Assembly: GCF_000002075.1 (NCBI RefSeq)
Contig: NW_004797502.1
Span: 64,998 to 128,997 of the forward strand
Direction: 5' to 3'
Source: Aplysia californica
Lineage: Eukaryota
DNA length: 64,000 nt
Position 1 is the first letter of the stretch; every line of letters begins with the position of its first letter. Shown piece after piece: positions 33,786-47,050 of this stretch. The notes under the pieces were generated by a model. That model saw only the letters and a list, made by a program, of their open reading frames with translations. It was not told the origin of the DNA and did no database searches. The position numbers and the translations under genes were made by a program.

Positions 33786-34135
33786 AGTTCAAGGAGCAGG
33801 AAGAAAATATTCTTCTACCTTCTATATGATCTTCTTTTGTGCAAACAAATCAGAAAGCCAGAATTTTAACCTCTTCTCCATGCGTTTAACATGTCGTGGA
33901 AATTGTCCATATGGTTTGGAAATGTTCATCAATTTCCAATATGGCTCAGTAAAGAACTCATGGAAGAAGGACAGTGCTGCAATGAAAGCCATTATTCTTT
34001 CATCTTGCAAATAATTCAGAATTCTTTCCAGTTTAACCCCTTCACTTTTGCCCACTTTGACCCCATATGCTGGAAAAATTTCCAGAAACCGCAAGAAATA
34101 GGTGACATCCCTTATAGGTCGTTGGGTGCTCTTGA
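33786..34135 (-). pseudogene. Transposase-like fragment
   Basis: ORF 33822-34094 (AFIAALSFFHEFFTEPYWKLMN..YGQFPRHV) is visibly homologous to ORF 35467-35886 (TALGLMHLHFTRPYWKLVQ..FASFPRFV). Superfamily not assigned. Confidence 0.55.
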
Positions 34136-34136
34136 A

Positions 34137-35858
34137 TTAAGTGAAAAGTATTACTAAGTATATATTTCTAAGCAATAGCTTTGATTGGATAGAGCTTTTG
34201 GAGCTGAAAACAAAGATGTCTTTGGTTTTTGTGTATCTTAATAATTATTTTACGAGCATTCAAAGTTTCGTTTGACTTAGTTTTTTTCCGCGCTTTCCGG
34301 AGAAGTGCTCGGGGCCCTTTCTTTGGAGAGTTGTATCTTTCAAAGTTGGCGTTTCATATTCATGAAATGCACAGAACTCAAAGTCCAGCACAATGATACC
34401 CCAAATCTATAATTGTTAAGTTGTATCTCTTTATTTAACAAAGATAATGAAAATGACAAAAAACTGTTTTTCGCTGTGGAAAAATGGCACAATCCAGCTG
34501 ATTGTCCAACTTTGACATAGAGTCTCAAGAAAAAAAAAAGGGTACGACAAGTAAACCAAATATATTAGTCTACTAGCATGTTCTCAGAGACAAGCTCCAA
34601 TTTTGTTCAAACCTCTCAAGCAATAATTGTAGGATTTATGGTCTTCCGAAAATTGCTTGAAGGCCTTTTTGGCCATTTGGAAGAAAAGTCTGAAAAAATA
34701 AGGGCAAGATATTGAATGTTCCCAGAATCATTTTTCCGCAACCAGTTGAGATAGAAAGATGATACTTATATCACTGTATTCGTCTTTTAAAGTACTAAAA
34801 GGCTATATTCTTTTTACACTGTTCTTTATACAACAAGATACAAAGAAAACCATCAAATGAATGTATATTGCGCAACAAAAATAAGTTTGAGAAAAACTTT
34901 GAAAATTCGTAAAAATTTCATTTTCAAAGCCATCAGAAAACCAAAGACATCCCTGTTTTCAGCTCGAAGAGCTCTATATGCTCAATTCACTATTAACTTT
35001 AGATTGTTTACTTTTAATAGTATAAATACCAAGTCAAGCCCTTGTCAAAGCGACAAGAGACTTGTCTGGTGTAAAGGATTATTTCCTCAGTATTTCTGGA
35101 ATTGTAAATAGCACAACCACAACAGAACACCACACAAAATAAACAAATGGCAAAAGAACTGTATTAGTGACAATCTCACAACAGGGTTAATAGAACAATA
35201 TAGTAGCATTAGATTAATTAGAATCCTCTTACCTCAGAGGCAGGCATTCTGAATCCTGAGGTAGGACTCGTTCAGTTCAGGAAGGCAACTGACTTTCCAG
35301 AGGCGGCAATTACGTCTCACAGGGCTGAGGTCTAAGTCCCAGGCGAAGACAAACTTGGCGTCAACTAGTGCGATGTTATCTGCTCTAGGCCAGCGGAAAT
35401 ATTCCTGGTTTGCTTTAGTCTGTTCCAAAAATTTCATCTCGGCGGAAGTGTCGCTGCAAACATTAACTACTTGGCCAATGTAGAACCTGTCGTTGTAGTA
35501 GACTGCAGCCCAGGTCTTGTGAAGCGAAATGGCTCATTCCACAGCTGCACCTTCTCTGAACTCAACATAAGAGTCTGAAATGAGGTCACGAAAAGTTCTC
35601 TCCTTTCGGGGACATCGCTGAGGAAGCCATACAGACAATCACGAAGGGCAGCTTCATTTGGTACTGGAAAGGATACTGACAAAGTGGTAGAAAAAGTCTG
35701 CTCAAACACTGGGAGTGCATTATGTGCCAAATCTGAGAATGCCGCATGCAGTTCTCGGACAAAGCGAGGGAATGAAGCAAAGCTGGTGTGGCTCTGGACC
35801 AGTTTCCAGTAGGGTCTCGTGAAATGCAGATGCATCAAGCCTAACGCTGTGACAAGTG
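34137..35858 (-). mobile_element. 3' portion of a DNA transposon (degenerate transposase C-terminus plus non-coding end)
   Basis: Broken ORFs at 35467-35858 and 35234-35437 (KFLE..YFRWPRADNIALVDAKFVF). Inverted repeat gagct..gagctgaaaaca..gatgtctttggtttt at ~34191-34230 and ~34937-34975. Confidence 0.55.
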
Positions 35859-44950: not shown

Positions 44951-45329
44951 TATATGTCCCTAAAATATTGGAACCACTGTACTACAGTGACAGGACTGAC
45001 TCCTACAAAATCGCTTGTAACACAGAGTGGTGTCTTGTAGGCCCAAAAATATAACAACTGCACAAGGACTTTCAAAGAAAGATTGGAGTTTACCCAGTAA
45101 GAGTCTCTCCTCAATGAAATCACAACACTTTTATGACTGGGGCAACGAAAAACGTTGTCCTCACCTCGACCAGATTTGACAAGGGTCATCAAACGCCCGC
45201 AAGTGACGCAATTGGGGAGGTTAGATCTTAAAACATGGTTTTGAAGAAAAGTTATAGCATTATCATTTGACTGTCCAATTTCAAAAAGTACATTAATGGA
45301 TGGCTGTCTAGCAGCAGCCATGGGACGCA
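44951..45329 (-). pseudogene. Merlin/IS1595(ISXO2)-like transposase N-terminal fragment
   Basis: AITFLQ..L..CVTCGRLM..FRCPSH..SLRRDSYWVNSNLSL..LLYFW..VSPVTVVQWFQYFRDI, a zinc ribbon plus HTH typical of Merlin. Cut by the Sola TIR. Confidence 0.8.
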
Positions 45330-45429
45330 NNNNNNNNNNNNNNNNNNNNNNNNNNNNNNNNNNNNNNNNNNNNNNNNNNNNNNNNNNNNNNNNNNNNNNN
45401 NNNNNNNNNNNNNNNNNNNNNNNNNNNNN

Positions 45430-47050
45430 ATATATATATATAATAATTATAATCTGCGTCTGTGGTGTAGCAGTAAAGCATTTCGCTGTCGCATGCAGAA
45501 AATGTGAGTTTGATGCTCGCGTGGGGCGAGTTTTATTATAAATCGAGTATTCGTCTTTCTGCTGGCACGTTGTATCCCTCTCAACCCGGGTGGGCCGTGC
45601 TGCCTCCTGAATGATTTTAGTGTCAAGAGACGTAAAACTAGAACAATTTACAATTTGTATAGATCTAGACCTATATTGTTGATCAATACACAGGAGTAGT
45701 CCTCACTGAAACCTAAATCTAGATCTAGATCTACACAAGCAGTCCTCACCGAAACAGCCTAAATCTAGATCTAGATTAGATAGACTGACTGCAGTTCCTA
45801 GATCTAGAATCTAGACCTAGAATTTAAATCTTGAACCAGACTTAGATCTAGATCTAGATCTATGTTTTAAAAACAGTTTTGTAGTGGTTAGAACAAAGAG
45901 GGAGAGGTTAGATCTAGAATCTAGATCTAAATCTAGAATTCTAGACATAGTACAAAGGGTAGATCTAGATTTCTAGATCTAGATCTAGGGATTACGGTAA
46001 GGAGAAATGACAAACTAAAATGTAGACAAATTCGTCTAGAATCTGTTTCTCTTTATCACTTTTCATCACATCACAACCTTTGCAGGCGGTTGGGTTGGTG
46101 GTTGTTTGTGTCCTTGTTCGGTTGTTTTGTGTGTGTATAGATCTAGATCAAGACAGACGACAACACAAACGGTCATCAGCTGTTCAGCAGCAATGTTTAC
46201 ATCCGTAGGTAATGTCATTATTCACTTTATAACAAATATACTAGCAAATCTAATTGTAACATTAGATACTAACCTGCATCAGAAGACTCTGTAGAATCTG
46301 AATCAAATCAGCCTCGCTTCTTGAGCCGAAATAATCAAGAAAATCCTGAATGGAGTCGTTACCAACATTGTCAACAACGGTCCGCGAACAGCTGTTCAGT
46401 AGCTTGGCGATTTCCTCGCTTGACGTCGCCATGATCACTCGTCTCGACTTGTAGTGGTCGACGGAATATCTTGAATTTCTTTTCAAAACAATGCCAATGA
46501 AGTCCAAACAATAAAATTTCGACAGGGAACAGATTCAGCTGTATGCTCGAAGCGAAAATGACGAACTGCGTGACTTGTGAGGCTGTAGCTTCCCTCGCGC
46601 AAGTAGGACAAAGAAAACGGAAGACTGAATTTTGTACCGTGCTCGCTGATTGGATGCGCACTAAATACCCGAATATATTACTTCTGCGCACTCTTCAGTG
46701 TTGGAAAGTAGAGAAAACAAGCTTTAAAACCATACCAAATATAGGGGGTCTATTTTTAGACGGAAACCTTCCACAGCCGGCTGAAATTTGTCAATTTTTC
46801 ATTCTTCAAAGGCAATTTTCGATGATTTTTCCGATTGCGAGCGTCATAGGGTACCTTAGATATTGGCTTCAAAAACAGATTTTCCAACTGTTTTAGGCAT
46901 TATCATTACAATTTTTAGTTAGAAAAATGGATAAATAAAAAGATTTGGCCATAATCTCAAATTCGATAAAAAATCAATATTTTGTGTTTATGGAGCTGTA
47001 GCTAGCCTTGGGGATTTGCGTCTTCCGCCTGGTTTTCCCAGGCCACCACA
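45430..47050 (-). mobile_element. Sola-like transposon copy C (5' end; direct repeat of ~43317-44950)
   Basis: Near-identical to the 5' region of copy B, including the TIR at 47027-47050 and exon 1 (46432-46274). Confidence 0.85.

Follow-up and report, generated by a model that had tools for sequence, protein, structure and literature searches.

In Aplysia californica, the gene PDCD2 is followed by roughly 13 kb of transposon fragments, here called the nest, which derive from four families of DNA transposons (a hAT-fold family X, piggyBac, a Sola-like element, and Merlin). The locus raises the question of why these pieces should all share one orientation, antisense to the gene, and of what becomes of RNA that runs from PDCD2 into them. 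We analyzed the surrounding window, a stretch of 64,000 nucleotides (G000:C232:64,998-128,997 of a 927-Mb genome), and all positions below are counted from its first letter unless a scaffold is named. A sequence-only reading had taken the nest for a candidate one-strand cluster of the flamenco type, which could produce precursors of PIWI-interacting RNAs (piRNAs). Read-through of the gene, seen in RNA, and a strand rule that holds across the genome support instead a cluster fed by gene read-through: it is probable that the PDCD2 nest works as a read-through trap, with its antisense RNA predicted to yield piRNAs that would silence these elements.

RESULTS

PDCD2 RNA extends into the nest

Plus-strand read-through from PDCD2, which the sequence-only reading had proposed, is seen in assembled RNA. 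In all four contig runs (X15, X16, X17, and X5, representing at most four studies and judged to be RNA from their splice joints), the PDCD2 exons are joined by two GT..AG joints, and the contigs continue past the stop codon into transposon sequence. The depth over the intron bin 32,436-33,069 was 0, 0, 1.05, and 0 in the four runs, so they are not DNA. Run X15 yields a single unbroken contig of 3,408 nt comprising PDCD2 exons and 33,078-35,620; the contigs of X17 reach 36,169 and are followed by zero cover, those of X16 extend to about 35.9 kb in pieces, and those of X5 extend to 34,309 and then continue in pieces. The short form of this RNA, with a 3' untranslated region (UTR) of 2.9 kb, likely ends at an A-rich site near 36,160-36,169. 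The loss of X16 and X17 cover past 36.2 kb is a weak hint of such an end, no AATAAA or ATTAAA precedes the candidate end near 36,165, and reads at the genomic A run 36,157-36,170 may stem from oligo-dT priming. An earlier observation, that both hexamers are absent between the PDCD2 stop and about 35,138, is accurate as far as it goes (AATAAA occurs first at 35,138, ATTAAA first at 36,321), but it is nothing special: the read-through RNA passes the AATAAA at 35,138, AATAAA is not depleted on the antisense strand of the other loci described below, and that strand is only 27 to 32% U. Scarcity of poly(A) signals and U-richness were accordingly rejected as marks of such loci.

Strand information came from three raw poly(A) runs that belong to a single study and were evaluated in 15 bins outside the short interspersed nuclear element (SINE) and simple repeats. 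On account of their poly(A)-like ends, the reads were taken as sense to the RNA, and plus-strand depth was then present in 28 of the 45 cells (15 bins in three runs), compared with 2 of the 45 for the minus strand; none of the three runs contained a sense Sola read. The plus-strand peak (14, 9.6, and 9.9) lies at 35.6-36.2 kb, where reads show A for G at 36,162-3. Part of this peak could come from other copies of the Sola-like element; a C at 36,021, present in copy A and missing from the copies on C83 and C215, was found in 11 of 37, 15 of 27, and 8 of 31 reads. The low read depth over PDCD2 exons in runs X22 to X24 was not used for statements on expression.

Beside the short form, a longer read-through form appears to be present in some samples. 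Runs X15 and X5 contain contigs farther into the nest at depths close to those of their PDCD2 contigs (X15, 38,583-39,580, 10.4 versus 12.3; X5, 38,490-39,405, 10.1 versus 13.6), both cover the Sola intron unspliced, as an antisense transcript would, and the bin with 38,490-39,580 holds plus-strand reads only. Separately, one RNA contig of X16 joins 42,581 to 44,401; both sides share ATGAAG, a plus-strand GT..AG pair is located there, and the join may reflect splicing of an antisense transcript, or else a copy elsewhere that carries a deletion.

One-strand piles are a genome-wide rule for four families

To place the nest in its genomic context, we listed matches to the four window families, then to hAT and Tc1, leaving out the PDCD2 locus and merging pieces at most 3 kb apart, and scored the best candidates (72/213, 116/675, 53/102, 95/95, 150/329, and 150/1,159), so that the lists favor well-kept copies. 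Among the four families, 27 cross-family pairs lie closer than 20 kb, compared with 0.97 expected for uniformly placed matches, and all 27 are co-oriented (19/19 below 10 kb and 8/8 at 10 to 20 kb); in the next two distance classes agreement is 2/4 and 2/4, and beyond 100 kb it is 14/27. The close pairs fall into 15 loci, each of them one-stranded, and the maximum reached in 100,000 strand shuffles was 13. Co-location is roughly 28-fold above expectation, with 12 of the 47 Sola-like and 19 of the 115 piggyBac matches lying in the loci, as against 2 of 150 for Tc1.

For the four families, lying on one strand is a rule throughout the genome, and this supports the trap reading far better than local chance does. 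For seven insertions in the nest to share one strand by chance is a matter of about 1/128, a figure of little weight because the region was picked for that very property; the value of 1/32 originally proposed was a wrong calculation, since it assumed six independent coding families where the nest in fact contains five elements of four families, which amount to some seven DNA insertions in addition to one SINE, every one on the minus strand.

In 819 kb around the 15 loci, 134 frames of at least 170 aa on both strands were searched against Pfam, followed by mapping with tblastn. All 71 DNA-transposase fragments lie on the locus strand, a count that does not represent 71 independent events because one element can count twice; it includes 12 of 12 fragments from non-anchor families (pogo, P, Mutator-like, hAT, and SWIM). 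Since the loci share single elements only, the idea that they are copies of one locus was rejected. The six-family list contained further candidate piles on C19, C198, C360, C397, and C137. At C129, the opposite strand carries what we take, from its resemblance, to be a possible piggyBac-like first exon, and the same RNase H element (83%) is found at L141:1-1373 and L152:5469-6841, opposite to the DNA transposons in piles C213 and C440.

Genes run antisense into most piles

A gene running antisense into the pile was found beside 10 of the 15 loci. The host screen, a Pfam search of the five best-scoring frames pointing into the pile on each side (150 frames), gave 6/15 on the antisense sides (IBR/RING, a weak CMS1, FHA, GPN ATPase, Vps53, and RLIP76) and 2/15 on the sense sides (GEMIN8 and tRNA ligase), weak isolated matches to GCM, P22_AR_C, Integrase_H2C2, and DUF3915 being set aside. 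Four more hosts, INO80B, C9orf78, AATF, and a MYND/SMYD gene, came from follow-ups that were confined to the antisense side. The Fisher p value of 0.008 for 10 versus 2 is overstated owing to these one-sided follow-ups; in addition, the score had been trained on a set that included two of the host frames. Inspection of C332 and C958 turned up later exons, which put most of each pile behind the last exon.

Anatomy of the nest

The identity of the host gene is supported by the domains zf-MYND (E = 1.6e-10) and PDCD2_C (E = 9e-13), the exons comprising a MYND finger exon and later ones near 30,056-30,332, 31,028-31,144, and 33,081-33,242. The first fragment of the nest lies 0.6 kb 3' of the stop codon, so placed that the precursor would be on the same strand as the gene. 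Between 33,786 and 47,052, with segment boundaries set in this analysis, about 12.9 of the 13.1 kb of called bases (about 99%) are transposon-derived, and every coding piece is on the minus strand, antisense to PDCD2; on both counts the initial description was right. No reverse transcriptase (RT) or RNase H match was found in the locus. For one transposase, the nearest homologues that carry a species name come from Plakobranchus and Elysia.

Table 1. Coordinates of the PDCD2 nest, its RNA, and the one-strand piles on other scaffolds
Feature	Position	Strand	Remarks
PDCD2 host gene	24,539-33,242	+	Stop at 33,240-33,242
Extended 3' UTR of spliced PDCD2 RNA	33,243-36,169	+	Carries antisense X2, piggyBac end, X1, and Sola-like 3' end
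X2, hAT-fold transposase fragment (family X, no Pfam match)	33,840-34,032	-	tblastn with P0001-P0014, E to 4e-22
piggyBac 3' terminus	34,037-34,167	-	Behind TTAA (34,033-34,036); 87% to the end of four intact copies
X1, 3' part of second family-X element	34,156-35,857	-	Frameshifted C terminus and 3' UTR, terminus lost; 84-91% identity to C187 and C1741 copies; tblastn match
Sola-like copy A	35,858-37,984	-	3' inverted repeat and 3' two-thirds of transposase; 5' truncated
SINE-like high-copy repeat	38,010-38,530	-	tRNA-like head by eye; copies in window and loci
Unspliced locus-unique stretch under RNA contigs	38,490-39,580	+	Putative long read-through form
5' end of family-X element	38,630-39,431	-	N-terminal exon 38,630-38,800 and GGTACC terminus; P0002 residues 34-90, E = 7e-7; P0012, E = 1e-6
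piggyBac transposase, 3' half	39,433-40,519	-	One in-frame stop; runs into gap; DDE_Tnp_1_7, E = 1e-24; zf-Tnp_2; 89-90% to four copies
Sola-like copy B	40,620-44,951	-	Inserted at ATAT in Merlin; 5' inverted repeat; contig flanked on either side by a 100-N gap
Merlin (IS1595-like) transposase, N-terminal part	44,952-45,329	-	97% and 88% to copies with DDE_Tnp_IS1595 frames
Sola-like copy C	45,430-47,051	-	5' part and 5' inverted repeat; flank ATTT, unlike that of B
15 one-strand piles, 6-30 kb (G000)	C22, C29, C129, C154, C162, C187, C201, C213, C332, C440, C546, C586, C739, C958, C1281		

The pieces are truncated, as had been noted, but they are nested rather than merely abutting (Table 1): family X is represented twice, piggyBac and Merlin once each, and the Sola-like element three times, alongside the SINE. 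The two piggyBac pieces are one split element, with 179 bp missing relative to intact copies, and what splits it is an X-family element that itself encloses Sola-like copy A and the SINE. From their position and the shared GGTACC end, which likewise terminates a 91%-identical relative of X1 in L055, element X1 and the family-X 5' end beyond the SINE are probably the same insertion; the latter had no DNA match elsewhere. ARAGORN found nothing at the tRNA-like head of the SINE, which has poly(A)-like loose ends in read data.

The three Sola-like pieces belong to one family (99.2% over 1,903 bp and 97.3% over 1,650 columns). Copy A (DUF7869, E = 8e-18) sits at ACTT inside X1, and the corresponding empty site is present in C187; the junction is bridged in a DNA-like sequencing run (run X1, from another individual) and in runs X16 and X17. 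Copy B contains a fully open frame of 633 aa (41,077-42,978), which differs from copy A in 3 of 408 compared residues, and its stretch 43.3-44.95 kb, ending in CAC and formerly listed as a separate CAC-ended element, is the 5' half of the same Sola-like element, as the C83 copy shows. The different 5' flanks of copies B and C argue for separate insertions, and the possibility that a single insertion has A as one end and C as the other was rejected because the empty X1 site in C187 continues unlike the flank of C. The claim that junctions lack matching target duplications holds in that no matched pair was seen, but target sites do survive on one side of each copy (ACTT in A, ATAT in B, and ATTT in C), their partners having been lost by truncation or lying inside the two 100-N gaps.

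The name Sola for the DUF7869 element is our presumed label. Sola elements have a DDD transposase, terminal inverted repeats, and a 4-bp target duplication; the element here has DUF7869, the inverted repeat GTGTGRTGGCC, and 4-bp A..T flanks, no copy having been seen with both flanks matching. It is a recent family with few near-identical matches, three of which are in the PDCD2 locus. The family-X transposase (850 to 1,070 aa) gave no convincing Pfam match, hAT included, in 8/8 homologues. For a predicted structure of the homologue P0003 (mean predicted local distance difference test score, 76), the top 10 Foldseek hits are all Hermes (E = 1.7e-6 to 2.1e-5), with a low template modeling score of 0.19 to 0.30 by query. 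The hAT superfamily is defined by an 8-bp target duplication and the hAT dimerization domain; family X, with GGTACC ends beside TA, may be an unclassified hAT-related group, as far as the modeled fold indicates.

To the right of the nest, a minus-strand exon with a SWIB/MDM2 domain (52,660-52,800; E = 8e-5) marks an MDM2-like gene, so that the nest is flanked by two converging genes. In between, 47,270-48,434 is a high-copy, noncoding, TAGATC-rich repeat of 1.16 kb (of 40 candidates scored, at least 32 are near-full copies), a 60-bp piece of which recurs inverted at 38,569-38,633. The GC-rich stretch of about 200 bp at 47,056-47,269 is without a match in any fetched locus or protein, and its assignment to family X was rejected, as blastn, tblastx, tblastn, and Pfam gave no match. 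ARAGORN and Rfam found nothing in the window.

DISCUSSION

The mechanism that we propose for the trap would comprise the following steps: (i) the host promoter would drive antisense transposon RNA, which would enter the PIWI pathway; (ii) antisense insertions would be kept and sense ones removed by selection, later elements landing inside earlier ones; (iii) the longer read-through form would span the whole nest in some tissues; and (iv) the elements would be silenced in trans. The closer model for such a locus is a gene-read-through cluster and not flamenco, and comparison with known systems, as described in passages of the sources cited, bears on this choice.

The piC-DoGs, piRNA clusters downstream of genes in mouse, human, and hamster (PMC11615739), likewise use a host promoter, keep splicing, and run past the coding end over dense antisense transposon pieces, with short and long forms that vary between samples; their cargo is LINE-1 and endogenous retroviruses (ERV) and their loci measure 50 to 100 kb, whereas the loci here contain DNA transposons, measure 6 to 30 kb, and have predicted piRNAs. 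Core piRNA clusters in mosquito arise by read-through (bioRxiv 10.1101/2022.08.22.504762) and resemble the nest in being one-directional, polyadenylated traps that start right after an ordinary upstream gene; unlike the nest, with its DNA transposons and predicted piRNAs, those of Aedes are rich in viral insertions and have a demonstrated piRNA output, and the phrase "DNA transposon" is absent from the available text of that preprint. In Drosophila, antisense 3' UTR insertions of Tirant are sufficient for piRNA silencing (PMC13226689), a situation like the antisense transposon sequence within the mature 2.9-kb 3' UTR of PDCD2, except that Tirant is a single, recent, polymorphic retroviral insertion called transient and the nests here are multilayered and seen in several individuals. 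Among mollusks, clusters of the slug Arion vulgaris are uni-strand and transposon-antisense (PMC11615739) and those of the snail Lymnaea stagnalis are enriched in DNA transposons (PMC6128900), neither being tied to upstream-gene read-through in the main-text passages. Flamenco shares with the nest one strand, antisense fragments, and nesting, but it has its own promoter and gypsy-type cargo (Qu et al., 10.1101/2022.08.22.504762) and forms a super-cluster of about 495 kb (PMC11615739). The RNA described here is joined to PDCD2 exons, although an extra internal promoter may exist, and the cargo has no RT/RNase H match, so the flamenco-type class originally suggested does not fit.

Several observations weigh against the read-through trap. 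Regarding the RNA, the cover of X15 and X5 at 38.5-39.6 kb consists of separate contigs, from which neither strand nor one continuous transcript can be read; cover is slight or absent past about 36.2 kb in X16 and X17, so that the long form is not general; and the strand of the poly(A) library was inferred and is not on record. As to orientation, when hAT and Tc1 are included, the close pairs number 45, of which 38 agree and 7 are opposite, and 20 of 26 loci are one-stranded, each of the 6 mixed ones involving Tc1 or hAT; hAT is co-oriented with the four families in 10 of 12 cases, Tc1 in 1 of 6. RT/RNase H pieces inside the loci lie once on the same strand and four times on the opposite one, a mariner 6 kb beyond the edge of the C22 locus is oriented the other way, and the SINE, at 2 versus 2 inside the loci and 10 versus 10 outside, was rejected as orientation evidence. 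Concerning the hosts, the symmetric screen by itself gives 6 versus 2, the other four coming from the antisense-only follow-ups; at C22 the host, ECT2, is 14 kb upstream; no antisense host was found at C29, C129, C440, and C1281; and at C129 a ubiquitin-protease gene 16 kb off points in from the sense side. The PDCD2 nest probably works like a read-through cluster but is not a proven member, and its piRNA output is a prediction.

The main rival is a tolerated graveyard, in which elements nest in DNA that can be spared behind genes and are purged when they land in sense, an orientation in which read-through would express their transposase or pick up splice or poly(A) signals, with no role for small RNAs. 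An antisense bias of insertions in transcribed regions is a general expectation, and a graveyard of this kind accounts both for the nesting and for the way the pieces face with respect to the host gene; moreover, the predicted piRNAs are not among the RNA observed. We nevertheless regard it as unlikely, though it is the alternative that survives best, since it fits poorly with the co-location of unrelated, low-copy, autonomous families while Tc1 and the SINE are not concentrated, and since in mouse the transposon content behind genes tracks read-through only at productive piRNA clusters, according to passages of PMC11615739. Considerably less probable is another small-RNA route, in which read-through RNA would pair with sense transposase mRNA and give small interfering RNAs (siRNAs) of about 22 nt or a simple block. 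The same anatomy would be expected, and 22-nt transposon-matching RNAs are described in Lymnaea muscle (PMC6128900), but the known loci of like anatomy in mouse, human, hamster, mosquito, and slug give piRNAs in the sources cited above, and sense Sola reads were absent from the three poly(A) runs. Lastly, that haplotype overlaps or misplaced repeat contigs at 100-N gaps have built an apparent pile is very improbable: copies B and C both begin at the edge of a 100-N gap and duplicate nearby sequence at 97 to 99%, and none of the listed contigs bridges the gaps or the B-Merlin junction, but 33.8-40.5 kb is gap-free, contigs of the DNA-like run bridge 32,422-34,268, 35,365-35,893, and 38,539-39,473, the three Sola-like copies have three different junctions, and 15 other loci follow the same rule. 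The position of contig B in this locus is unproven, and an artifact is plausible, if doubtful, for that contig only and not for the whole finding. A gap-edge duplication also occurs on C319 (L096-L097, G000:C319:122-135 kb), where about 5 kb is repeated on either side of a 100-N gap, probably because overlapping haplotypes were left uncollapsed.

To return to the read-through trap, a broader and more tentative proposal is that the genome may hold at least 16 dispersed small traps of this kind against cut-and-paste transposons, each behind an essential, broadly expressed gene (PDCD2, GPN, AATF, INO80B, C9orf78, VPS53, RALBP1, CMS1, an RBR ligase, SMYD, and an FHA gene). The choice between alternative 3' ends would switch them, a sizable part of the well-preserved copies of Sola-like, piggyBac, and family-X elements would lie in them, and orientation alone would suffice to find them. 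A literature search found no paper describing such loci in this animal, overlap with the clusters of the 2012 Aplysia piRNA paper being outside the reach of that search. If true, the read-through reading would carry the trap model, described for retroelements and viral inserts of mammals and mosquitoes, over to a mollusk and its DNA transposons, and it yields 16 named loci and one defined mRNA, that of PDCD2 with its 2.9-kb antisense-transposon 3' UTR, on which questions of piRNA source and 3' end choice can be addressed.

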